DNA of 64,000 nucleotides from Escherichia coli (GTDB lineage: Bacteria > Pseudomonadota > Gammaproteobacteria > Enterobacterales > Enterobacteriaceae): assembly GCF_001677475.2 (NCBI RefSeq), contig NZ_CP015229.1; one strand, written 5' to 3'. The notes below the pieces were generated by a model, which did not search any database, had not been told where the DNA came from, and saw only the letters and a program-made list of their open reading frames with translations. The first letter of the stretch is position 1. Every line of letters starts with the position of its first letter. The position numbers were made by a program, and so were the translations under genes. Shown piece by piece: positions 3,214 through 27,853 of this stretch.

Positions 3214-4708
3214 TCTTTCACACATTATTGCCGCAGCATTCAATGAACCGCTGCTTCTGGAGCCCGCCTATGCGCGGGTTTTCTTTTGCGCGCTCGGGCG
3301 CGAGATGGGGGCAGCAAGTCTTTCGGTACCACAACAACAGGTACAGCTTGATGCTCCCGGAATGCTGGCTGAAACGGACGAGTATATGGCCGGAGGTAAA
3401 CGACCGGCCCGTGTTTACCGGGTGGTGAACGGTATTGCTGTACTGCCGGTGACCGGCACGCTGGTGCACCGGCTGGGTGGTATGCGGCCATTTTCCGGAA
3501 TGACAGGCTATGACGGCATTGTCGCCTGTCTTCAGCAGGCAATGGCGGATAGCCAGGTGCGGGGCGTACTGCTGGACATTGACAGTCCGGGCGGGCAGGC
3601 CGCCGGCGCGTTTGACTGCGCTGACATGATTTACCGCCTCCGTCAGCAGAAGCCGGTCTGGGCACTGTGCAATGACACGGCCTGTTCTGCAGCCATGCTG
3701 CTGGCGTCGGCCTGCTCCCGACGGCTGGTTACCCAGACATCCCGTATCGGCTCCATTGGCGTGATGATGAGCCATGTCAGCTATGCCGGTCATCTGGCGC
3801 AGGCCGGTGTGGATATCACGCTGATTTACTCAGGGGCGCACAAGGTGGATGGCAATCAGTTTGAAGCGTTGCCGGCAGAGGTTCGCCAGGACATGCAGCA
3901 GCGGATTGATGCGGCGCGCCGGATGTTTGCCGAAAAAGTGGCGATGTATACCGGTCTGTCTGTTGATGCCATCACGGGAACAGAGGCTGCCGTTTTTGAA
4001 GGTCAGTCCGGCATTGAGGCCGGGCTGGCGGATGAATTAATCAATGCGTCGGATGCCATCAGTGTGATGGCCACGGCGCTGAACAGTAATGTCAGAGGAG
4101 GCACTATGCCGCAATTAACTGCAACGGAAGCCGCCGCGCAGGAGAACCAGCGAGTGATGGGGAGCCTGACATGCCAGGAAGCGAAAGGACGTGAACAGCT
4201 TGCCACGATGCTGGCAGGACAACAGGGCATGAGCGTTGAACAGGCCCGGGCGATTCTGGCCGCGGCGGCACCGCAGCAGCCGGTGGCATCCACGCAGAGT
4301 GAAGCCGATCGCATTATGGCGTGTGAAGAAGCGAACGGTCGTGAACAACTGGCGGCAACGCTGGCGGCGATGCCGGAGATGACGGTGGAAAAAGCCCGCC
4401 CGATCCTGGCTGCTTCACCGCAGGCGGATGCCGGACCATCACTCCGTGATCAGATCATGGCACTGGATGAGGCAAAAGGGGCTGAGGCGCAGGCTGAACA
4501 GCTGGCTGCCTGCCCGGGAATGACAGTGGAGAGCGCCCGGGCTGTGCTGGCTGCGGGATCAGGTAAGGCAGAACCGGTCTCTGCATCCACAACCGCCATG
4601 TTTGAACATTTCATGGCGAACCATTCACCGGCAGCGGTACAGGGTGGCGTGGCACAGACGTCAGCAGACGGTGATGCGGACGTGAAAATGCTCATGGCCA
4701 TGCCATGA
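3203..4708 (+). CDS. Capsid assembly protease C with nested scaffold (Nu3-like) C-terminal region; S49/ClpP-like peptidase
   Basis: 501 aa; N-terminal half has S49 protease-like motifs (DSPGG, SAA), C-terminal half is Ala/Gln-rich scaffold-like with three tandem repeats. Confidence 0.85.
   Translation: MRRNLSHIIAAAFNEPLLLEPAYARVFFCALGREMGAASLSVPQQQVQLDAPGMLAETDEYMAGGKRPARVYRVVNGIAVLPVTGTLVHRLGGMRPFSGMTGYDGIVACLQQAMADSQVRGVLLDIDSPGGQAAGAFDCADMIYRLRQQKPVWALCNDTACSAAMLLASACSRRLVTQTSRIGSIGVMMSHVSYAGHLAQAGVDITLIYSGAHKVDGNQFEALPAEVRQDMQQRIDAARRMFAEKVAMYTGLSVDAITGTEAAVFEGQSGIEAGLADELINASDAISVMATALNSNVRGGTMPQLTATEAAAQENQRVMGSLTCQEAKGREQLATMLAGQQGMSVEQARAILAAAAPQQPVASTQSEADRIMACEEANGREQLAATLAAMPEMTVEKARPILAASPQADAGPSLRDQIMALDEAKGAEAQAEQLAACPGMTVESARAVLAAGSGKAEPVSASTTAMFEHFMANHSPAAVQGGVAQTSADGDADVKMLMAMP
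4165..4555. repeat. Three tandem ~40-45 codon in-frame repeats inside the C/Nu3 scaffold region
   Basis: Repeated peptide unit (QEAKGREQLATMLA...VEQARAILAA / EEANGREQLAATLA...VEKARPILAA / DEAKGAEAQAEQLA...VESARAVLAA) read in the ORF translation. Confidence 0.5.
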
Positions 4709-14490: not shown

Positions 14491-15919
14491 ATGGGTAAAG
14501 GAAGCAGTAAGGGGCATACCCCGCGCGAAGCGAAGGACAACCTGAAGTCCACGCAGTTGCTGAGTGTGATCGATGCCATCAGCGAAGGGCCGGTTGAAGG
14601 TCCGGTGGATGGATTAAAAAGCGTGCTGCTGAACAGTACGCCGGTGCTGGACACTGAGGGGAATACCAACATCTCCGGTATCACGGTGGTGTTCCGTGCC
14701 GGTGAGCAGGAGCAGACACCGCCGGAGGGGTTTGAATCCTCCGGCTCCGAGACGGTGCTGGGTACGGAAGTGAAATATGACACGCCGATCACCCGCACCA
14801 TTACGTCTGCAAACATCGACCGTCTGCGCTTTACCTTCGGTGTACAGGCACTGGTGGAAACCACCTCAAAGGGTGACAGGAATCCGTCGGAAGTCCGTCT
14901 GCTGGTTCAGATACAACGTAACGGTGGCTGGGTGACGGAAAAAGACATCACCATTAAGGGCAAAACCACCTCGCAGTATCTGGCCTCGGTGGTGGTGGAT
15001 AACCTGCCGCCGCGCCCGTTTAATATCCGGATGCGCAGGATGACGCCGGACAGCACCACAGACCAGCTGCAGAACAAAACGCTCTGGTCGTCATACACCG
15101 AAATTATCGATGTGAAACAGGGCTACCCGAACACGGCACTGGTCGGCGTGCAGGTGGACTCGGAGCAGTTCGGCAGCCAGCAGGTGAGCCGTAATTATCA
15201 TCTGCGCGGGCGTATTCTGCAGGTGCCGTCGAATTATAACCCGCAGACGCGGCAATACAGCGGTATCTGGGACGGAACGTTTAAACCGGCATACAGCAAC
15301 AACATGGCCTGGTGTCTGTGGGATATGCTGACCCATCCGCGCTACGGCATGGGGAAACGTCTTGGTGCGGCGGATGTGGACAAATGGGCGCTGTATGTCA
15401 TCGGCCAGTACTGCGACCAGTCAGTACCGGACGGCTTTGGCGGCACGGAGCCGCGCATCACCTGTAATGCATACCTGACCACACAGCGCAAGGCGTGGGA
15501 TGTGCTCAGTGATTTCTGCTCGGCGATGCGCTGTATGCCGGTATGGAACGGGCAGACGCTGACGTTCGTGCAGGACCGACCATCAGATAAGGTGTGGACC
15601 TATAACCGCAGTAATGTGGTGATGCCGGATGATGGCGCGCCGTTCCGCTACAGCTTCAGCGCCCTGAAGGACCGCCATAATGCCGTTGAGGTGAACTGGA
15701 TTGACCCGAACAACGGCTGGGAGACGGCGACAGAGCTTGTTGAAGATACGCAGGCCATTGCCCGTTACGGTCGTAATGTCACGAAGATGGATGCCTTTGG
15801 CTGTACCAGCCGGGGGCAGGCACACCGCGCCGGGCTGTGGCTGATTAAAACGGAACTGCTGGAGACGCAGACCGTGGATTTCAGCGTGGGTGCTGAAGGG
15901 CTTCGCCATGTACCGGGTA
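14491..15919 (+). pseudogene. Tip attachment / host specificity protein J, N-terminal fragment, interrupted by an IS
   Basis: ORF 14491..15933 is collinear with lambda J through ...GLRHVPG, then runs into IS sequence and stops. Confidence 0.85.
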
Positions 15920-16010
15920 TGAGACGACAATAACTCAGTCCGCCTGGCGCCGATTATTCTGGCCGGTTTTGTAACCTGAGTGTCATTTACATGATCCAAC
16001 AGGAAATGGC

Positions 16011-17510
16011 GTGACGCTCAATACTTCTCAGGTCAGTTACTATATGACTCAGCGTAAGAAAGGTATAACTCAGCATATCTCGGCCATGAAGGCTGGTATC
16101 TCAGTCCGTTCTGGTCGTCGGATCGAAAAAGGAGAGTGGGCAAAAAACAGTGTTCGGCACTGGCGCACACGCAAAGATCCTCTGGAAGCTGTGTGGGACA
16201 GCATGCTTGTTCCTCTGTTGAAAGAGAGGCCGGCTCTGACACCAACAACTCTACTGGAGATGCTACAGGATAAATATCCCGGCCAGTACCCCAACAGCCT
16301 TCGAAGAACAATGCAACGGCGGGTTCGCGAATGGAAACTACAGTATGGTACAGAGCAGGAGGTCATGTTCCGCCAGCAACATCAGCCCGGCCTGCGAGGC
16401 CTGTCGGACTTTACTGAACTGAAAGGTGTAGTTGTCACCATCGCCGGTAAGTTGTTGGCGCATAAGTTGTATCACTTCCGTCTGGAATGGAGCCACTGGA
16501 GCTGGATGCGGGTTGTTCTGGGTGGTGAGAGCTTCTCTGCTCTGGCTGAAGGCCTGCAGGAAGCCCTCGGACAACTGGGCGGAGTGCCGGTAGAACATAA
16601 AACGGACAGCCTGAGGGCAGCATGGAAACAACAGGGCGAAGATGGACGCCGCGAGCTGACTGAGCGTTATGCTACTCTCTGTCAGCACTACGGAATGCAG
16701 GGCGTACACAATAATGCCGGTCGGGGCCACGAAAATGGCTCGGTTGAAAGTGCCCACGGACATCTGAAAAGGCGTATCTGTCAGGCGCTGATACTGCGGG
16801 GCAGTAACGACTTCAGCACCATAGAAGAATATCAGGCCTTCATCACTCAGCAGGTTATGCGGCACAACCGTAACAATCAGGATCTGGTCAAGGAAGAACG
16901 TCTTCATCTGAAACCGCTGCCGCTTCGTCGCAGTGCTGACTATGATGAGCTGACTGTGAGGGTTAGTCGCAGCAGTACCATCAATGTGAAGCACGTCGTC
17001 TACAGCGTACCTTCCCGGCTTGTAGGTCAACTGTTACGGGTCAGGTTATGGGACGATCGTCTGAGCTGTTACGTTGGCAGCAGCGAGGTCATGAGCTGCC
17101 CTCGCGTCAGACCAGAAAAAGGGAAGACGCGGGCCCGTCGTATCGACTTCCGACATGTGATCGACAGTCTGGCAAAAAAGCCCGGTGCGTTCTGCCATGC
17201 AACGCTGAGAAATGACATCCTGCCGGACGATGAATGGCGGAGGCTGTGGCGTCGCTTATGTAATCATCTGGAGCCCGATATGGCAGGAAGGCTGATGGTA
17301 CATGCCCTGAAACTGGCTGCAGGATACGACGATATCTCAGTCGTGGCAAAAGGTATGGAGCAGATGCTGAATACCCCGGGAAACGTGGATCTGCACCGGC
17401 TGATGCGCTTCCTGGGTATAAAAGAAAAGGCGTTGCCGGTAGTCAATGTGATACAGCATAACCTGAGCAGTTATGAGCAACTACTGCGTGGCAAGGGAGG
17501 TTCGCAGTGA
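16011..17510 (+). CDS. istA: IS21-family transposase IstA
   Basis: 499 aa; N-terminal HTH-like region plus DDE core; overlaps istB by 4 nt. Confidence 0.85.
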   Translation: MTLNTSQVSYYMTQRKKGITQHISAMKAGISVRSGRRIEKGEWAKNSVRHWRTRKDPLEAVWDSMLVPLLKERPALTPTTLLEMLQDKYPGQYPNSLRRTMQRRVREWKLQYGTEQEVMFRQQHQPGLRGLSDFTELKGVVVTIAGKLLAHKLYHFRLEWSHWSWMRVVLGGESFSALAEGLQEALGQLGGVPVEHKTDSLRAAWKQQGEDGRRELTERYATLCQHYGMQGVHNNAGRGHENGSVESAHGHLKRRICQALILRGSNDFSTIEEYQAFITQQVMRHNRNNQDLVKEERLHLKPLPLRRSADYDELTVRVSRSSTINVKHVVYSVPSRLVGQLLRVRLWDDRLSCYVGSSEVMSCPRVRPEKGKTRARRIDFRHVIDSLAKKPGAFCHATLRNDILPDDEWRRLWRRLCNHLEPDMAGRLMVHALKLAAGYDDISVVAKGMEQMLNTPGNVDLHRLMRFLGIKEKALPVVNVIQHNLSSYEQLLRGKGGSQ

Positions 17511-18262
17511 GCAATATCCATCACCTTGAACATAGCCTGCGTAAACTACGCCTGACACGAGTTGGAGCTGAATGGCACGCTCTGGAAAAACGAGCGCTGG
17601 CAGAAGGCTGGACACCATCGCGCTATCTTCTGACGCTATGCAATGAAGAACTCCTGTGGCGCGAGAGTGAAAAACTGCGTCGTTATAAAAAGGAGGCCCG
17701 GTTGCCAGTTGCCAAAACGCTGAGCGAATACGACTTCAGTCAGGTGCCGGAACTGAATGGAGCTCAGTTCCGGCAACTCTGTGAAACGACAGACTGGGTT
17801 GATGCAGGAGAAAACGTTCTGCTGTTCGGAGCCAGCGGGTTGGGGAAAAGCCATCTGGCGGCAGCGATCGTGGATGGCGTAGTAGGTCAGGGCTACCGGG
17901 CCCGGTTCTACAGCGCAGGAGAGCTGTTGCAGGAACTACGTAAAGCCAGAGCTCAGTTGAAACTGAATGAGCTGCTACTGAAACTGGATCGCTACCGGGT
18001 GATAGTGGTGGATGATCTTGGCTATGTCAAACGCGATAGTGCCGAAACGGGTGTGCTGTTCGAGTTAATAGCGCATCGCTATGAACGTGGGAGCCTGGTG
18101 ATAACCAGTAACCATCCGTTCAGCATGTGGGGCAGCATCTTCGTGGATGAGACTATGGCGGTGGCTGCGGCAGACAGGCTGATCCATCACGGATATATGT
18201 TCGAACTGAAAGGGGAAAGCTACAGGAAAAAGACAGCGAAGGCAGTAACAAGCGCGACTTGA
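17507..18262 (+). CDS. istB: IS21-family helper ATPase IstB
   Basis: 251 aa; Walker A GASGLGKSH and Walker B VIVVDDLGY. Confidence 0.9.
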   Translation: MSNIHHLEHSLRKLRLTRVGAEWHALEKRALAEGWTPSRYLLTLCNEELLWRESEKLRRYKKEARLPVAKTLSEYDFSQVPELNGAQFRQLCETTDWVDAGENVLLFGASGLGKSHLAAAIVDGVVGQGYRARFYSAGELLQELRKARAQLKLNELLLKLDRYRVIVVDDLGYVKRDSAETGVLFELIAHRYERGSLVITSNHPFSMWGSIFVDETMAVAAADRLIHHGYMFELKGESYRKKTAKAVTSAT

Positions 18263-18325: not shown

Positions 18326-20320
18326 TAACCGGGCGATGTCATTGAAATCTGCGATGATGACTATGCCGGTATCAGCACCGGTGGTCGCGTGCTGGCGGTG
18401 AACAGCCAGACCCGGACGCTGACGCTCGACCGTGAAATCACGCTGCCATCCTCCGGTACCACGCTGATAAGCCTGGTTGACGGAAGTGGTAATCCGGTCA
18501 GCGTGGAGGTTCAGTCCGTCACCGACGGACTTAAGGTGAAAGTGAACCGGGTTCCTGACGGCGTTGCAGAATACAGCGTGTGGGGGCTGAAGCTGCCGAC
18601 GCTGCGCCAGCGCCTGTTCCGCTGCGTGAGTATCCGTGAGAACGACGACGGCACGTATGCCATCACTGCCGTGCAGCATGTACCGGAAAAAGAAGCCATC
18701 GTGGATAACGGGGCGCACTTTGACGGCGACCAGAGCGGCACGGTGAATGGTGTCACGCCGCCAGCGGTGCAGCACCTGACCGCCGAAGTCACCGCAGACA
18801 GCGGGGAATATCAGGTGCTGGCGCGCTGGGACACGCCGAAGGTGGTGAAGGGCGTGAGCTTCCTGCTCCGTCTGACCGTAACAGCGGATGACGGCAGTGA
18901 GCGGCTGGTCAGCACGGCCCGGACGACGGAAACCACATACCGCTTCACGCAACTGGCGCTGGGGAACTACAGGCTGACAGTCCGGGCGGTAAATGCGTGG
19001 GGGCAGCAGGGCGATCCGGCGTCGGTATCGTTCCGGATTGCCGCACCGGCAGCACCGTCGAGGATTGAGCTGACGCCGGGCTATTTTCAGATAACCGCCA
19101 CGCCGCATCTTGCCGTTTATGACCCGACGGTACAGTTTGAGTTCTGGTTCTCGGAAAAGCGGATTACCGATATCAGGCAGGTTGAAACCACAGCCCGCTA
19201 TCTTGGTACGGCGCTGTACTGGATAGCCGCCAGTATCAATATCAAACCGGGCCATGATTATTACTTTTATATCCGCAGTGTGAACACCGTTGGCAAATCG
19301 GCATTCGTGGAGGGCGTCGGTCGGGCGAGCGATGATGCGGAAGGTTACCTGGATTTTTTCAAAGGCAAGATAACCGAATCCCATCTCGGTAAAGAGCTGC
19401 TGGAAAAAGTTGATTTGACGGAGGATAACGCCAGCAGACTGGATGAGTTTTCGAAAGAGTGGAAGGACGCTAACGATAAATGGAATGCCATGTGGGGCGT
19501 CAAAATTGAGCAGACCAAAGACGGCAAACATTATGTCGCGGGTATTGGCCTCAGCATGGAGGACACGGAGGAAGGCAAGCTGAGCCAGTTTCTGGTTGCC
19601 GCTAACCGTATCGCGTTTATTGACCCGGCAAACGGGAATGAAACGCCGATGTTTGTGGCGCAGGGCAACCAGATATTCATGAACGACGTGTTCCTGAAGC
19701 GCCTGACAGCCCCCACCATTACCAGCGGTGGCAGTCCTCCGGTATTTTCCCTGACATCAGACGGAAAGCTGACCGCTAAAAATGCGGATATCAGTGGTAG
19801 TGTGAATGCGAACTCAGGAACGCTCAACAATGTCACGATTAACCAGAACTGTACGATTAAGGGCATGCTGGAGGCGACTCAGGTCAGAGGTGACTTCGTT
19901 AAAGCTGTATCCAAATCATTTCCGAAACAGGCTGGTACGTGGGGTAACACGGAAACACCAAACGGGACGGTTACAGTCACCATCAGCGATGATCATAACT
20001 TTGACCGTCAAATCATTATTCCGCCCATTATCTTTAACGGAATAGCGTATAGCGATCCGGGAAGTGGTAATAACCCGGGAGGTACAAGATACACGGGTTA
20101 TGGTTTTGAAGTTCGCAAAAACGGTGTATTAATCGCATCCAGAGAAACTAAAGGGGCCATTCCCGGTAGCTACAGTGCGGTTATTGATATGCCGAGTGGC
20201 AGGGGAAGCGTCACTCTGGAGTTTAAGGTTTTCCATAAAGGCAATCAGTGGGCAGGTAATATCACCGACTGTACGGTGATTGTGACCAAAAAAGCCGCTT
20301 CCGGCATCAGTATTCGTTGA
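18326..20320 (+). pseudogene. Tip attachment / host specificity protein J, C-terminal fragment
   Basis: Frame continues the lambda J sequence ([13 protein letters not shown]...) directly after the IS; ORF 18389..20320 covers most of it. Confidence 0.85.
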
Positions 20321-21053: not shown

Positions 21054-23993
21054 ATGGCAGTAAAGATTTCAGGTGTACTGAAAGACGGCACAGGAAAACC
21101 GGTACAGAACTGCACAATCCAGCTGAAAGCAAAACGTAACAGCACCACGGTGGTGGTGAACACGCTGGCCTCAGAAAATCCGGATGAAGCCGGGCGTTAT
21201 AGCATGGACGTTGAGTACGGTCAGTACAGCGTTATTCTGTTGGTGGAAGGATGCCCGCCGTCACATGCCGGGACCATCACCGTGTATGAAGATTCCCGAC
21301 CCGGTACGCTGAATGATTTTCTCGGTGCCATGACGGAGGATGATGCCCGTCCGGAGGCTCTGCGCCGTTTTGAACTGATGGTGGAAGAGGTGGCGCGTAA
21401 CGCGTCCGCGGTGGCACAGAACACGGCAGCCGCGAAGAAGTCAGCCGGCGATGCCGGCACATCTGCCCGTGAGGCGGCAACCCATGCGACTGATGCTGCA
21501 GATTCAGCACGTGCAGCCAGCACGTCAGCCGGACAGGCCGCGACGTCAGCTCAGGAGGCTTTTTCCTGCGCAGGAACGGCATCAGCAAAAGCCTCTGAGG
21601 CATCAAAAAGTGCTGCCGCTGCAGAGTCCTCAAAAAGCGCGGCGGCCACCAGTGCCGGTGCCGCGAAAACGTCTGAAACGAATGCTGCAGCGTCACAACA
21701 ATCAGCAGCCACTTCTGCATCCACCGCGACCACGAAAGCGTCAGAAGCTGCCACCTCAGCCCGGGATGCGTCGGCTTCAAAAGAGGCGGCAAAATCATCA
21801 GAAACGAGCGCAGCCTCGAGCGCAAGTAGTTCCGCTTCCTCGGCAACAGCGGCAGCAAATTCTGCGAAGGCGGCAAAAACGTCCGAGACGAACGCCAGGT
21901 CTTCTGAAACGGCAGCGGAACAGAGCGCCTCAGCTGCGGCAGGTTCAGAAACTACCGCTGCATCATCAGCCCGTGAGGCGTCAGTCAAAGCGGAGGAGGC
22001 TGCAGCCAGTGCCACTGCCGCCGGAAAATCGGCAGAAAGCGCCGCATCATCCGCTTCAACAGCCACAACGAAGGCTGGCGAAGCCACTGAACAGGCCAGC
22101 GCAGCAGCGAGGTCAGCTTCCGCAGCGAAGACATCCGAAACGAACGCGAAAGCGTCGGAAACCAGCGCAGAATCCTCAAAAACGGCTGCCGCATCGTCCG
22201 CCAGTTCGGCGGCGTCATCGGCCTCATCGGCGTCTGCTTCAAAAGATGAGGCGACCAGACAAGCGTCAGCAGCGAAGGGCAGCGCCACGACGGCATCCAC
22301 GAAGGCAACAGAGGCTGCTGGCAGTGCGACGGCGGCAGCACAGAGCAAAAGTACGGCGGAATCCGCGGCAACGCGCGCCGAGACAGCGGCAAAACGGGCA
22401 GAGGATATTGCATCCGCCGTGGCGCTTGAGGATGCGAGCACGACGAAAAAGGGGATAGTACAGCTCAGCAGTGCGACCAACAGCACTTCCGAGTCACAGG
22501 CGGCAACGCCAAAGGCAGTAAAAGCAGCCAATGACAATGCTGAGAAACGTCTGCAGAAAGATCAGAACGGTGCGGATATCCCTGGCAAAGACACCTTTAC
22601 GAAAAATATTGGTGCCTGCCGTGCCTTCGGTGGGTCAGTAAGCACAACAACAGGAAACTGGACGACTGCACAGTTTATCGAGTGGCTGGATTCTCAGGGA
22701 GCATTTAACCATCCATACTGGATGTGCAAGGGTTCCTGGTCTTATGGCAATAATAAAATCATTACTGATACTGGCTGCGGTAATATTCATCTCGCCGGAG
22801 CTGTCATTGAAGTAATGGGGATAAAGTCAGCGATGACGATCCGCATTACCACTCCGACTACATCCAGCGGTGGCGGAACAACCAACGCCCAGTTTACCTA
22901 TATTAATCACGGAACAGATTATTCACCTGGCTGGCGAAGGGACTATAACTCCAGAAATAAGCCAACGGCATCAGAGATCGGGGCGCTACCGTCAGGTGGA
23001 ACAGCAGTATCATCAGTTAATCTGGCTTCAAAAGGTCGGGTAGCCGCGCTGACAGACAATACGCAGGGGGCAGCAGGTCTTGAGTTATACGAGGTGTATA
23101 ACAACGGATATCCAACAGCGTATGGAAATATCATTCACCTGAAAGGGATGACAGCCGTTGGCGAAGGTGAGTTACTCATCGGCTGGAGTGGTACAAGCGG
23201 TGCTCATGCTCCGGCATTTATTCGTTCACGACGGGATACGACCGACGCAAACTGGTCGCCGTGGGCGCAGCTTTACACCTCGGCTCATCCTCCTGCAGAG
23301 TTTTATCCAGTCGGTGCACCAATCCCGTGGCCATCAGATACCGTTCCGTCTGGCTATGCCCTGATGCAGGGGCAGACTTTTGACAAATCTGCATACCCGA
23401 AACTTGCAGCGGCTTATCCGTCAGGCGTTATTCCTGATATGCGTGGCTGGACGATTAAGGGCAAGCCCGCCAGTGGTCGTGCCGTATTGTCTCAGGAACA
23501 GGACGGCATTAAATCGCACACCCACAGCGCCAGCGCATCCAGTACGGATTTGGGGACGAAAACCACATCGTCGTTTGATTACGGCACTAAATCCACGAAT
23601 AACACCGGTGCGCATACCCATAGTTTAAGTGGCAGCACGAATGCGGCTGGTAATCACAGCCATAGAGATGGCCGTCGATTTAACCCCAGTGTTTTTAAAG
23701 ATACTTATCAATATGGTTATACAAGCTCAGGTCAAAATACCTGGGGGGTACAAGGCTCAGTAGGTATGTCTACGGGGTGGTTAGCTAATACCAGTACAGA
23801 TGGTAATCATAGCCACTCACTGTCCGGTACAGCAGTATCTGCAGGTGCACACGCGCATACTGTCGGTATTGGTGCTCATACGCACTCCGTTGCGATAGGG
23901 TCACATGGACACACCATCACCGTTAACGCTGCTGGTAACGCGGAAAACACCGTCAAAAACATCGCATTTAACTATATTGTGAGGCTTGCATGA
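21054..23993 (+). CDS. stf: Side tail fibre protein Stf-like
   Basis: 979 aa; N-terminus matches the lambda Stf N-terminal domain; long Ala/Ser/Thr-rich repeat shaft; C-terminal His-x-His repeats. Confidence 0.9.
21380..22450. repeat. Low-complexity Ala/Ser/Thr/Glu-rich repeat region inside stf
   Basis: Roughly 350 codons of degenerate SAA/TSE/AAK repeats; GC-rich and free of stops in several frames. Confidence 0.6.
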
Positions 23994-24892
23994 TTACGCT
24001 CATTCTTTCTGCACCAGTAACAGAAATGGCTGAAGCATTTAAGCGGGTATTCGCAAATGCAGATAATGTGAATATTGTCGGAAAGCCATTTGAAACAATC
24101 AGGGAATTTGACTGCATGGTAAGTGCGGCAAACAGTTTCGGCCTGATGGATGGCGGTGTTGATGCCGCCATTACCGCATTCTTCGGTACTCAGTTACAGT
24201 CCCGCGTTCAGAATCATATTCTTCGTGAATATCTCGGCGAGCAGCCTGTAGGTTCTGCATTTGTTATTGAAACGGGGCATAATCATCATCCCTGGCTGGT
24301 ACATGCGCCAACAATGCGTGTTCCGCTGACAATTGACGGAACAGACGCTGTATATAACGCAACCTGGGCCGCTCTGCTTGCCATCTTTCAGCACAATAAA
24401 CACGCAACGACAGACAGGAAAATAAAAACGGTGGTATTCCCTGCAATGGGAGCCGGATGTGGTCAGGTGCCGTTTGAAAGTGTTGCCCGGCAGATGAAGC
24501 AGGCATGGGATAACTTTAATAAAAAAACAGAATCAATTAACTGGGAATACGCACAATCCCGCCAGTCGGCAGTATTTGGCACATATGCATACTGTCCGGG
24601 TAATTCTGTTTGCCGTTATGCGGATACTAAATATATTGGATGCGGCGATTATCGGACGTATTGCTCACGTTCCGGGCAGGTCTGTATTAACCCTGAACAT
24701 CAGGCTGATGATGTACTGATACAACATCAGGCTAATAACCGGTTTCGCCCTGGTTCGCATATACACCGGATTAATCCAGAAAATCCCGTAGGTAATGTCA
24801 TCTCTGGCGCACATAGCCACGGAAGTAGCATCGTTATTGGTGCTCACACCCATACGCTCAATAAACAATATTCTGTCTCTGATATTAAGTAG
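23990..24892 (+). CDS. Protein with macrodomain-like N-terminus (putative ADP-ribose binding/hydrolase) and Cys/His-rich fibre-tip-like C-terminus
   Basis: 300 aa; start overlaps the stf stop (ATGA); motifs [18 protein letters not shown] and [12 protein letters not shown] resemble the two macrodomain signature blocks; C-terminal GSHIH, GAHSHG, GAHTHT repeats. Confidence 0.6.
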
Positions 24893-24900
24893 AGGTGAAC

Positions 24901-25476
24901 ATGGATTTCAGAATGAGTGAACAACCACGGACCATAACAATTTATAATCTGCTGGCCGGAACTAATGAATTTATTGGTGAAGGTGATGCATATATTCCGC
25001 CTCATACAGGTCTGCCAGCAAACAGTACCGATATTGCACCGCCAGATATTCCGGCTGGCTTTGTGGCTGTTTTCAACAGTGATGAGGCATCGTGGCATCT
25101 CGTTGAAGACCATCGGGGTAAAACCGTCTATGACGTGGCTTCCGGCGACGCGTTATTTATTTCTGAACTTGGCCCATTACCGGAAAATGTCACTTGGTTA
25201 TCCCCGGAAGGGGAGTTTCAGAAGTGGAACGGCACAGCCTGGGTGAAGGATACGGAAGCAGAAAAACTGTTCCGGATCCGGGAGGCGGAAGAAACAAAAA
25301 ACAACCTGATGCAGGTAGCCAGTGAGCATATTGCGCCGCTTCAGGATGCTGCAGATCTGGAAATTGCAACGGAGGAAGAAATCTCGTTGCTGGAAGCATG
25401 GAAAAAGTATCGGGTATTGCTGAACCGTGTTGATACGTCAACTGCACAGGATATTGAATGGCCAGCACTGCCGTAG
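24901..25476 (+). CDS. tfa: Tail fibre assembly protein Tfa-like
   Basis: Collinear with lambda Tfa ([75 protein letters not shown]...). Confidence 0.9.
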
Positions 25477-25573
25477 GGTAAAACATATAAATTCTATAAT
25501 TAGATGTATCTTTCCATTTACGGCAAGGAAGGGGGCTTGGAAGACGTAAAGCATCTCACACCGAGATTATTTT

Positions 25574-26164
25574 TTATATGTCAGGTGTCTGAAGTTTTGC
25601 TTTGGCTCTTAAAATGGTTTGCCGCGAGGTTTTGAATTCCCGGGCAATGGCACTTATACTTACACCTGACTTAATTCGTTCGAATACCACCTGTTTCTGT
25701 TCTTCATTTAACACAGGTGGTCGACCAAAACGTTTCCCTGCGCCCCGGGCTCTTACTATCCCGGAATGAGTGCGTTCAAGTAAAAGGTCTCGTTCAAATT
25801 CAGCGACTGCTGAAATTACTTGCATCATCATTTTTCCTGTTGGACTGGTCAGGTCAATGCCCCCCAATGCTAAGCAATGCACTCTGATACCTGTTTCGGT
25901 CAGTTGTTCCACTGTTTTCCTGATATCCATTGCATTACAACCAAGGCGATCCAGTTTTGTCACAATCAATTGATCACCACATTTCAGGCGAGCAAGCAAC
26001 CGGTTAAAACCAGGACGCTCACTGGTTGCTGCTGAGCCGCTAATGTGTTCTTCGATTATTTGCTGAGGTTTGATTTTAAAACCTGCACTTTCGATTTCCC
26101 GGCGTTGATTTTCGGGGGTCTGATCCAGCGTTGATATCCGACAGTAAGCAAAAATTCGAGACAT
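25574..26164 (-). CDS. Small serine recombinase (resolvase/invertase family)
   Basis: 196 aa; N-terminal catalytic block YCRISTLDQ (Ser nucleophile), [11 protein letters not shown]-terminal HTH. Confidence 0.85.
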
Positions 26165-26543
26165 AGTGAGACTCTATACGAAATTGGTGTACATATCATA
26201 ATGCATATCCAAAAATTATTTCGCTTATTATTGTACATATTTGTATGTATACGTTCGAAAATAAACGAATTCGGATGCAGTCCCGTAATTTTGGTGTAAC
26301 CAAAAATCGATTTTTTGAAAAATGGCTTTAACTCGGTTTGTTTTTCGAACTCCGGGCGGACTCGAGGAAGACGAATAATAGTGTTGTATGTTATTTTAAC
26401 CAGATTTTAAGTTGTTTGGTCGTGGAAAAGTGGAGCAAAATGTTGTTAAAGTGGAAAAATGGTAAAAAAAGTAGGTTGTTGCGGAATAACGTAGTTGTTG
26501 ATATTTTTTTAATGCATTGAAAAATTATTTTTCAGGGGGGGTA

Positions 26544-26810
26544 TTACACTTTACCATTTAAATTTTGGTTGTCTTTAAGAACTGATATCGCTGTTTGTAA
26601 TAATTCTTTGTTATCCAGCCATGACTTTTTCTTTATGTTTCCTTCAATGTAATCAAGCAATGTTCTGGTATTGATAGGTCTTCCCTGTTTTGCTACTTCC
26701 ACGACAGCATCTCCCAGGATAATTCTGACTTCAGGAAGCTGCGCAGGGAACCACTTTAGGGTGTCTTTTGATTTCATGAAGATATTCCTTAAAATATTAT
26801 TGGTTTTCAT
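26544..26810 (-). CDS. Hypothetical protein in AT-rich prophage accessory region
   Basis: 88 aa ORF, the only ORF of 60 aa or more in a ~1.2 kb AT-rich stretch; no family recognised. Confidence 0.4.
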   Translation of the reverse strand: MKTNNILRNIFMKSKDTLKWFPAQLPEVRIILGDAVVEVAKQGRPINTRTLLDYIEGNIKKKSWLDNKELLQTAISVLKDNQNLNGKV

Positions 26811-27385
26811 TGCAATATTGTATGTCTGATTCAGGATATGTTGACTTATACATCGGTTTTGTCCGGGTTATTGGATATGCCAATCCCTAATTTTATTAGA
26901 GCATGACCAAAAATGCTGAATATGATAAGTAGTGAAGTGATTATCAGTATGCTGTTCATATAGCCTCGAATTAGTATGGTGTTATATATAATATAGTTGA
27001 CAATTTTTATCCTGGGTGTTCTTAAAGTTCGTAGATGAACCCTGTAGTTTCAGGTATACAGGAATGCTTACAGATAGCGGCAAAAGTCAGGAGGTTAATG
27101 GCGCAAACTGAAGGGGTAGCTGCGAACTAACTTAGGTAGAGACTCTACACGGATTCGGTTTAAAAGTATACATAGATAACAATTTTTATCTGAAGAAGAA
27201 AAATATTAAGGTGATATGGTCATATATACTTTAATGCGGAAGAATGAATGTGATGAGAGTGCTGTATCTGAATGGTTGAAAAACCGCAGACACGTCGTAT
27301 GCAAGAACGTGCTGCGGTTGGCTGGTGAACTTCCGATAGTGCGAGTATTGAATGATTTCCAGCCGTTACCGATTTTACGTGTTAA

Positions 27386-27634
27386 TTAGTGAACAAACCA
27401 CTCGTCAGCAGACTCCCAGGTATCTTTCAGAGTTTCCTGAACAAAAGTTTTAGCTGAATCTTTATCGGCGGTGCGCGTAACAGAAAGGCCATCGTTGCTG
27501 GTGGCTTTTACGATCACCTCTACATCGTCATAACGCTTACTGATGCGTCGAGTTAATTCTTCCTTTAACGCATCCACAGCACCGTTTGGCATTTTAGTCA
27601 TTTTCTCTTTGGCTATGCAGATCTCAATACGCAT
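27386..27634 (-). CDS. DinI-family protein (prophage-encoded DinI-like)
   Basis: 82 aa; MRIE..IAK...GA.DAL..EL.RRI and C-terminal [10 protein letters not shown] match the DinI family. Confidence 0.85.
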
Positions 27635-27647
27635 AAAAATCCCTCTA

Positions 27648-27695
27648 CACTGTGTTTGTATACAGTGTTATTTTTAACTGTATGAATAAACAGTG
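27648..27695 (-). promoter_or_regulatory. Two tandem LexA (SOS) boxes upstream of the dinI-like gene
   Basis: cACTGTgtttgtatACAGTg (27648-27667) and aaCTGTatgaataaACAGtg (27676-27695); both fit CTGT-N8-ACAG. Confidence 0.6.
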
Positions 27696-27853
27696 TCAAT
27701 AGAACAAAGATTGCTGCATGTACAAATGTTCTTTGGCTACAAATACACCTACTGATCATGTTCTGCTATGCTCTGATACCTCCAAAATGTACAATCAGCG
27801 GCATGAATTTTTCTTTGTACATATGATTGTACATAATCAAAGAGACAACAATT

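Follow-up and report, generated by a model that had tools for sequence, protein, structure and literature searches.

Genetic context of the macro gene

We analyzed a stretch of 64,000 nucleotides (nt) from Escherichia coli (contig NZ_CP015229.1, assembly GCF_001677475.2), hereafter the window, which carries a lambdoid prophage. Between its side tail fiber gene (stf) and its tail fiber assembly gene (tfa) lies a gene for a 300-amino-acid protein. Judged from profile searches and predicted structure, the N-terminal 199 residues of this protein are a macrodomain of the Macro2 type, followed by a block with conserved cysteines and by a variable tail with GxHxH motifs, and we refer to it as the macro protein (Macro-Cys4-HxH) and to its gene as the macro gene. 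The features of the locus are collected in Table 1.

The start codon of the macro gene overlaps the stop codon of stf in an ATGA, within GCATGATT, and a GAGG in the last stf codons provides its Shine-Dalgarno sequence. The gene ends with a TAG (24890 to 24892), and the gap to the ATG of tfa (24901), which is preceded by AGGTG, contains an in-frame GTG at 24895. The limits of the insertion are visible in the comparison with PhiR26_1, where tfa directly follows stf and there is no macro gene (empty site in locus L005, positions 4590 to 4620, gaggcttgcataATGgcattcagaatgagtgaaca). By tblastn, the last 200 amino acids of Stf are 100% identical to those of the PhiR26_1 Stf, 70% to those of lambda, and 64% to those of T4 gp37, and Tfa is 94% identical to its PhiR26_1 counterpart. 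The inserted DNA begins at the stf stop codon and extends almost to the tfa start; the GAGG that serves tfa at the empty site is used here by the macro gene, and the cassette brings its own AGGTG for tfa. A first reading of this DNA, made from the sequence only, had described an open reading frame (ORF) of 300 amino acids coupled to stf through an ATGA, and the junction comparison bears this out and shows that the insertion is precise. It was also right that tfa follows the macro stop codon closely, although the gap is 8 nt and not 9.

In a survey of 5426 complete E. coli genomes, the cassette was found in 127 (2.3%), at 108 places on chromosomes and 22 on plasmids, and an uninterrupted stf/tfa junction was found in at least 3338. 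The macro gene is an optional, precisely bounded, and horizontally mobile cassette. Because an identical tip and a near-identical Tfa occur without it, both in PhiR26_1 and in E. coli genomes, the macro protein looks dispensable for building the fiber type of the window. Because plaques can form without lambda-type side fibers, however, loci free of the cassette do not prove that a fiber is assembled there.

Several other explanations for an ORF at this site were considered and rejected. It is not an ordinary fiber module split off from stf by a frameshift, a possibility that the sequence-only reading had left standing: Stf is complete, with a canonical C-terminal end, and its last 200 residues are those of PhiR26_1. 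A programmed frameshift giving a Stf-macro fusion was discarded because no slippery heptamer precedes the GCATGA and because the same GAGG is used by tfa at the empty site; the overlap is an ordinary one for termination and reinitiation. No promoter or terminator was found flanking the macro gene, the interval from 23300 to 26300 holding four promoter-like and three terminator-like sites compared with 6.1 and 2.8 in shuffled sequences, and its GC content is like that of the neighboring genes. For these reasons, it is part of the late tail operon rather than a classical moron with its own signals. Coupled in translation to stf and lacking transcription signals of its own, the macro gene would yield its protein late, at the same time as the fiber and its chaperone. 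Nor does the gene belong to an invertible segment, since the pin-like invertase gene directly after tfa is accompanied neither by alternative fiber or tfa copies nor by convincing inverted repeats. With no alternative fiber/tfa segment between tfa and the invertase, the invertase itself looks orphan. Orphan invertases are likewise known from the defective prophages of strain K-12 (pinR and pinQ).

Table 1. Features of the stf-macro-tfa locus (positions in the window; aa, amino acids)
Feature	Position	Strand	Evidence
stf, side tail fiber gene, 979 aa	21054-23993	+	PHROG 295 tail fiber, E=2.5e-231
Stf tip, T4 gp37/lambda Stf type, last ~200 aa, seven HxH motifs	23391-23990	+	tblastn
Macro gene (Macro-Cys4-HxH protein, 300 aa, ATG start)	23990-24892	+	phrog_2613, E=1e-148
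Macrodomain, aa 1-199, Macro2 (Ymx7-like), with N-terminal beta-alpha-beta extension	23990-24586	+	Pfam, AlphaFold2, Foldseek, profile
Ligand loop 1 (N48-x6-G55 G56 V57 D58), aa 44-61	24119-24172	+	invariant in 15-member alignment A1
Ligand loop 2 (G154-x-G156-x-G158)	24431-24472	+	invariant in 15-member alignment A1
Cys block, aa 200-241	24587-24712	+	conserved in 107/109 representatives
Hypervariable tail, aa 242-300	24713-24889	+	109-representative survey
GxHxH motifs, aa 255-259, 273-277, 284-288	24752-24766, 24806-24820, 24839-24853	+	sequence
Inserted cassette (macro gene and new Shine-Dalgarno, AGGTG, for tfa)	23990-24900	+	comparison with empty site in PhiR26_1
tfa, tail fiber assembly gene, 191 aa from ATG	24901-25476	+	phrog_105, E=8e-99
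pin-like serine DNA invertase	25574-26164	-	phrog_125, E=1.8e-67

A Macro2-type macrodomain

The Pfam Macro model (PF01661) matches the macro protein from amino acid 44 to 169 over its full length (model positions 1 to 118 of 118, E=1.5e-18). The Macro_2 model (PF14519) gives a weak match restricted to amino acids 42 to 128 (E=4.3e-4), as faint as for many other members of the family, and the best E value among the NCBIfam models for ADP-ribose-binding and deacetylase proteins, 8e-14, does not reach their equivalog cutoffs. A structure predicted by AlphaFold2 (AF2) for the monomer from an alignment of 123 sequences has the three-layer alpha/beta/alpha macro fold, with a predicted local distance difference test (pLDDT) score of 94 to 98 across amino acids 1 to 199; an earlier run with 15 close relatives had given a pLDDT of 53. 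When this model was compared with the PDB by Foldseek, the first rank fell to yeast Ymx7 (1njr; E=1.1e-11, 198 aligned columns, root mean square deviation of 3.0), and many solved macrodomains were matched with a probability of 1.00. A profile of the 123 sequences (A4) searched against PDB sequences gave the same order of relationship, with Ymx7 (1njr) at 5.9e-19, TTHA0132 at 4e-12, YmdB and OiMacroD at about 1e-6, and DarG at 7e-4. Fold and profile thus both put the macro protein nearest to Ymx7, ahead of the MacroD, macroH2A, ALC1/DarG, PARG, and viral clades.

The alignment with Ymx7 spans the N-terminal beta-alpha-beta extension and both ligand loops. Loop 1 aligns with VSPGNSYGYLGGGFDKAL of Ymx7 and loop 2 with FPLLGTGVGGLP of TTHA0132 and IPGLCTGYAGVP of Ymx7. 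To describe the family, we used an alignment of 15 members (A1) and the representatives of 109 clusters, among which loop 1 is retained in 106 and loop 2 in all. The ratio of nonsynonymous to synonymous substitution rates (dN/dS) in the macrodomain was 0.10 to 0.19 in six comparisons. The earlier proposal that the N-terminal half is a macrodomain is thus upheld by the Pfam match, the confidently predicted fold, Foldseek, and the profile search alike, and the two sequence blocks on which it had been based (amino acids 44 to 61 and 148 to 159) both lie inside the significant PF01661 match. On these profile and model data, the N-terminal region is a Ymx7-like macrodomain of the Macro2 type with its ligand loops intact.

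As reported for yeast Ymx7, the Macro2 clade converts ADP-ribose-1''-phosphate to ADP-ribose and has no de-MARylase activity (PMC6397177). Because the domain of the macro protein is of this type, the removal of ADP-ribose from macromolecules appears less likely as its activity, by analogy, than the processing of a small ADP-ribose derivative.

The Cys block and the GxHxH tail

The Cys block follows the pattern YCP..C..A..YIG.G.YRT.C..SG..CI...HQ.DD. The window protein has C-terminal cysteines at positions 202, 208, 218, 225, and 232, of which 202, 208, 225, and 232 are the conserved ones. In the AF2 model, the block forms two beta-hairpins with a pLDDT of about 74 to 79, and it is probably a small metal-binding (or disulfide-stabilized) beta-hairpin domain. 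Its dN/dS ranged from 0.08 to 0.45, and a single pair of sequences, with only eight substitutions, gave 0.80. The remainder of the protein is far less constant. Between one and three HxH motifs are present in the tails of 105 of the 109 representatives, and the first GxHxH is found in 103, but sequence, length, and ending vary widely, with several alternative endings among the representatives, and in the most frequent E. coli allele the third HxH has been lost. Substitutions accumulate several times faster in the tail than in the rest of the protein, but its dN/dS stayed below 1 in every comparison that allowed an estimate. In the AF2 monomer, the tail is disordered (pLDDT below 50).

The Cys4/HxH extension is limited to enterobacterial fiber-locus proteins. 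No homologs of it beyond the family were found by tblastn against phages, in PHROGs, in the PDB, or in a search of 5.8 billion proteins, where only family members or fragments of them appeared. One such fragment occurs in the Salmonella phage SEN34 (locus L004, 4001 to 4183), as an isolated Cys block that is 61% identical to amino acids 184 to 244; it adjoins an acyltransferase moron, far from any macrodomain, and is the remnant of a decayed macro gene. Within the locus, the tail can be aligned by hhalign with the distal HxH segment of the neighboring Stf (E=4e-5, probability of 70%, 38 columns), BLASTP finds short matches between the two with E of about 0.001, and a DNA repeat is common to both (19 of 22 nt, 86%). 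The likeness of the C-terminal HxH repeats to a fiber tip, pointed out before from the sequence only, is therefore real in the sense of being above chance, although it is weak. The match of the macro protein to Pfam Phage_fiber is not significant (E=7.5), neither a collar nor a fiber shaft was matched, and no similarity to the Tfa/gp38 family was detected in PHROGs, Pfam, or NCBIfam. In tips of the T4 gp37 type, the HxH motifs bind iron ions that lie on the axis of the trimer (PMC11705849), and on this ground it is a reasonable inference that the tail forms a metal-dependent, probably trimeric assembly.

Distribution and cotransfer with the host-range module

The family comprises 1712 database clusters. 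The order of fiber gene, ATGA overlap, macro gene, and tfa was found in all of the 14 full-length loci examined, and the overlap itself was kept in 13 of the 13 loci in which the junction was read. This insert, first noticed in the window, is shared by lambdoid prophages (the window, Gifsy-1, and L018 to L020), P2-like phages (SEN4/SEN5 and L016), Mu-like prophages (L015 and L017), and P1-like phage-plasmids (L011 and the degraded L012), and it also occurs in phage Chuche and in Erwinia and Citrobacter prophages (L013 and L014). Carriers include clinically important E. coli (ST131 and O157:H7) and Salmonella (Gifsy-1). On the E. coli plasmid p1919D3-2 (L012, 2758 to 5880), the module is decaying, with the fiber gene in pseudogene pieces and the macro gene frameshifted.

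In comparisons of these loci, recombination breakpoints flank the macro gene, and it is strictly cotransferred with the host-range module. The Mu-like L015 and the P2-like L016 encode the same 269-amino-acid macro protein (100% identity) next to fiber tips that are 74% identical and Tfa proteins with unrelated C-terminal halves. Between the window and the P1-like plasmid L011, the macro tails are 95% identical and the fiber tips 67%. Since near-identical tails are paired with tips as different as this, covariation of the macro tail with the fiber tip was not found in either comparison. The one correlation seen for macro protein identity is with that of the N-terminal half of Tfa, which is encoded next to it (rho of 0.65), and physical linkage is sufficient to explain this.

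Relatives at other sites and the "tail protein" label

Homologs of about 200 amino acids without the tail, 35 to 50% identical to the macro protein, are widespread and occur in cyanobacteria, Paenibacillus, planctomycetes, myxobacteria, protists, giant viruses, and jumbo phages. The closest of the tailless relatives (64% identity) is encoded in another phage between ParB and methyltransferase genes on one side and a terminase gene on the other. In phages RSL1, P106B, and FBKp24, the homologs are located among nonstructural genes, with glutathionylspermidine synthase (RSL1), primase (P106B), and thymidylate synthase (FBKp24) in their surroundings. The homolog in PhiPA3 is gp271 and not gp108, the AdfM gene of that phage. 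The Klebsiella jumbo phage FBKp24 (L008, 1454 to 4513) has its tailless homolog, which is labeled "tail protein," four genes after an RNA 2'-phosphotransferase. The product of RNA 2'-phosphotransferase is the precursor of ADP-ribose-1''-phosphate. This neighborhood hints at the processing of ADP-ribose-1''-phosphate by the Macro2-type clade in phages.

In RefSeq, the members of the family are called either "macro domain-containing protein" or "phage tail protein," in PHROGs they form phrog_2613, whose function is given as unknown, and a Macro domain is noted in the record of Gifsy-1. The earlier suggestion that the system is undescribed therefore has to be divided: the family as such is already present in these three resources, but no functional description of it was found in the full-text literature that we searched. 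Free-standing macrodomain proteins of about 200 amino acids from cyanobacteria, Paenibacillus, planctomycetes, and actinomycetes are also labeled "Phage tail protein" or "Phage tail assembly-like protein" in the AlphaFold database and in RefSeq. It appears that the label spread from the enterobacterial fiber-locus gene without evidence.

State of the prophage

The prophage of the window is interrupted upstream of the fiber locus. An IS21-family element (istA, 16011 to 17510; istB, 17507 to 18262) divides its tail-tip gene J into an N-terminal part at 14491 to 15933 (positions 1 to 476 of the lambda TipJ model) and a C-terminal part at 18389 to 20320. This interruption probably prevents the prophage from making functional tails, even though stf, the macro gene, and tfa remain intact. 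The middle of stf (21450 to 22540) is a long region of repeats rich in Ala, Ser, Thr, and Glu with many short direct DNA repeats, and it gives rise to long spurious ORFs (335, 328, and 199 amino acids) in other frames and on the opposite strand. Downstream from the invertase, the interval from 26150 to 27830 has a low GC content (33 to 36%) and contains an 88-amino-acid ORF without a family match (26544 to 26810, minus strand) and a DinI-like gene (27386 to 27634, minus strand). Because the host gene prfC starts at 27827, this interval is probably the border between prophage and host.

Possible roles of the macro protein

We tentatively favor, with a confidence somewhat short of an even chance, a reading in which the macro protein works late and in the cytoplasm, either binding a small ADP-ribose derivative or processing it, and has a tail for metal-dependent oligomerization or docking. 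The derivative, bound or hydrolyzed in the infected cell, would be substituted at C1''; ADP-ribose-1''-phosphate is a candidate, as is a related by-product or signal derived from NAD. The benefit to the phage, at the time when structural proteins accumulate, would most plausibly be to blunt a host response based on NAD or ADP-ribose. A weaker step of the proposal is that the Cys4/HxH part might mediate oligomerization on metal ions, probably as a trimer, or dock the protein to the complex in which fiber and Tfa are assembled. We count the tailless relatives among nonstructural phage genes, together with the precedent of AdfM for counterdefense by a phage macrodomain, as arguing for such an accessory role. 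Delivery with the virion, which the first reading had also suggested, is mechanistically unlikely by way of a side fiber tip.

Several points weigh against the favored role. For every member of the family, both substrate and benefit are inferred, and the transfer of activity from the Macro2 clade is weak because that clade has a single characterized member. Loop 2 lacks the aromatic residue of the catalytic MacroD enzymes and resembles the noncatalytic loop of macroH2A, so that the macro protein may be a binder and not a hydrolase. Late expression is unusual for counterdefense genes. The position between fiber gene and tfa is invariant in lambdoid, P2-like, Mu-like, and P1-like phages, and this fixed place, together with the fiber-like tail, exceeds what simple hitchhiking would give and fits a physical link with the fiber.

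Such a link is the core of the alternative that comes next, which we regard as rather unlikely. The GxHxH tail would trimerize, or dock on the Stf tip or on Tfa, and three macrodomains displayed at the distal end of the fiber would alter host range or adsorption by binding or modifying a surface ligand. In four phage lineages, the gene keeps its place between fiber tip and tfa together with its ATGA overlap, as would be expected here. Expected too are the resemblance of the tail to the HxH needle of fibers, its hypervariability (a property of receptor-binding regions), and its disorder in the monomer model, since a segment of this kind would fold only in the oligomer. The correlation with the N-terminal half of Tfa points in the same direction, but linkage is enough to account for it, and the remaining comparisons are unfavorable: an identical macro allele goes with divergent tips and unrelated Tfa C-terminal halves (L015 and L016), and the tail does not covary with the tip. 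The macro protein has no virion-attachment domain and no signal peptide, and the commonest E. coli allele manages without the third HxH. The name "phage tail protein" is a mere annotation label that has spread to free-living bacteria. We know of no extracellular macrodomain ligand on enterobacteria.

A distinctly unlikely role is that of a macromolecule de-ADP-ribosylase like AdfM or DarG, which would clear host-placed ADP-ribose from phage DNA, RNA, or proteins, possibly including the fiber. Phage macrodomains with this role are known (AdfM of PhiKZ and PhiPA3, T4 Tk.4), and the N-x6-GGVD of loop 1 matches the catalytic signature of MacroD-type hydrolases. The relation to DarG is weak, however; the PADLOC match is marginal (E=0.0048 over 38 residues), the profile match to DarG was the lowest of those given above, and Tk.4-type proteins are only distant structural matches (rank 37, 18% identity). 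Furthermore, the PhiPA3 homolog is not its AdfM, the Macro2 clade reportedly lacks de-MARylase activity (PMC6397177), and expression with the late genes would come too late to protect replicating DNA. By sequence and model, the macro protein is outside the DarG/ALC1-like clade to which AdfM belongs.

Two further proposals seem to us very unlikely. In Pseudomonas N4-like phages, the side tail fiber and its chaperone determine the activation of type II Thoeris, a TIR-type immune system triggered by the folded complex of the two, which signals through His-ADPR (bioRxiv 2026.06.04.730250). By analogy, the macro protein might be an antidote cotranslated with its trigger, the fiber and chaperone, whose Macro2 pocket hydrolyzes or sequesters the C1''-substituted signal (His-ADPR or gcADPR), and the HxH/Cys tail might hold it on the nascent fiber-Tfa complex, where the signal would be generated. 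If true, it would be the first macrodomain inhibitor of nucleotide immune signaling and the first anti-defense gene embedded in the locus of its own trigger. The other proposal is that the macro gene is a largely selfish hitchhiker that entered the most frequently exchanged phage module a single time and has spread with it, its HxH tail being a scar of recombination from a fiber gene, with little or no function. The module of fiber tip and tfa is a known unit of horizontal exchange, the breakpoints flank the macro gene, the tail evolves fast with repeats decaying in some alleles, and the cassette is rare in E. coli. Such a passenger would not be expected to show strong purifying selection on the macrodomain and the Cys block, ligand loops that are nearly invariant among the representatives, a first GxHxH retained in nearly all of them, or a tail dN/dS below 1 wherever it was estimable.

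We give little credence to a second assembly factor needed together with Tfa to fold or metallate a fiber tip like that of the window: the gene position, the coupling with stf and tfa, and an HxH/Cys tail that could pass on metal ions would suit it, but PhiR26_1 and most E. coli prophages do without the gene, in the T4, lambda, and PhiR26_1 records, whose tips are 64 to 100% identical, no macro gene overlaps or adjoins the matching region, T4 gp37 assembles with gp38 and gp57A alone, and the conserved nucleotide-binding pocket would be left unexplained.

In eukaryotic viruses, macrodomains play a central part in conflicts over ADP-ribose, and since 2025-26 they have been known in this capacity from phages too (AdfM). 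The Macro2 clade has barely been studied, and the family described here adds to it a new combination of domains at a fixed site of the most exchanged phage module. Its substrate could reveal a late counterdefense against immunity based on NAD or ADP-ribose, or instead a new enzymatic or ligand-binding decoration of fibers, or a role of Macro2 proteins beyond tRNA splicing. In practical terms, engineered host-range swaps that copy fiber-tfa modules would carry or lose the macro gene unnoticed.

Comparison with known systems

By profile and by fold, the best solved relative of the macro protein is Ymx7 (YMR087W; 1njr, 1txz, 1ty8), the only characterized member of the Macro2 clade, with which it shares the N-terminal extension and both loops. 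Identity is only about 21%, however, and Ymx7 is a cellular enzyme without a Cys4/HxH tail. Among proteins of the tail itself, T4 gp37 and the lambda Stf tip have GxHxH repeats with similar spacing. Unlike them, the macro protein has only one to three repeats and no collar, head domain, or part for attachment to the virion, and it has no fiber architecture, its N-terminal 199 amino acids being a globular macrodomain. The adhesin gp38 of the T2/S16 type and the Tfa/gp38 chaperones are similarly encoded right after the distal fiber gene and coexpressed with it, but there is no similarity in sequence or fold, and the macro gene is itself followed by a Tfa gene of the ordinary kind.

The entries in phrog_2613 and RefSeq (Gifsy-1 STM2588.1n and SEN4_19) belong to the same family, with 64 to 98% identity and the same locus; they are labels only, and no experimental basis was found for their "tail protein" name. 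The nearest functional parallel is AdfM (PhiKZ gp104, PhiPA3 gp108, T4 Tk.4), a phage macrodomain that acts in counterdefense against DarT2 (PMC13309987; bioRxiv 2025.11.20.689424). Both are free-standing macrodomains encoded by phages, and AdfM operates in a conflict between phage and host over ADP-ribose. AdfM is DarG-like (ALC1 type), removes ADP-ribose from DNA, and in PhiKZ is imported into the phage nucleus, in contrast to the macro protein, which is of the Macro2 type, belongs to a late tail fiber operon, and bears an additional, putatively metal-binding tail. What is new here is a phage macrodomain of another clade, in a new domain fusion and at a unique, conserved genomic position.

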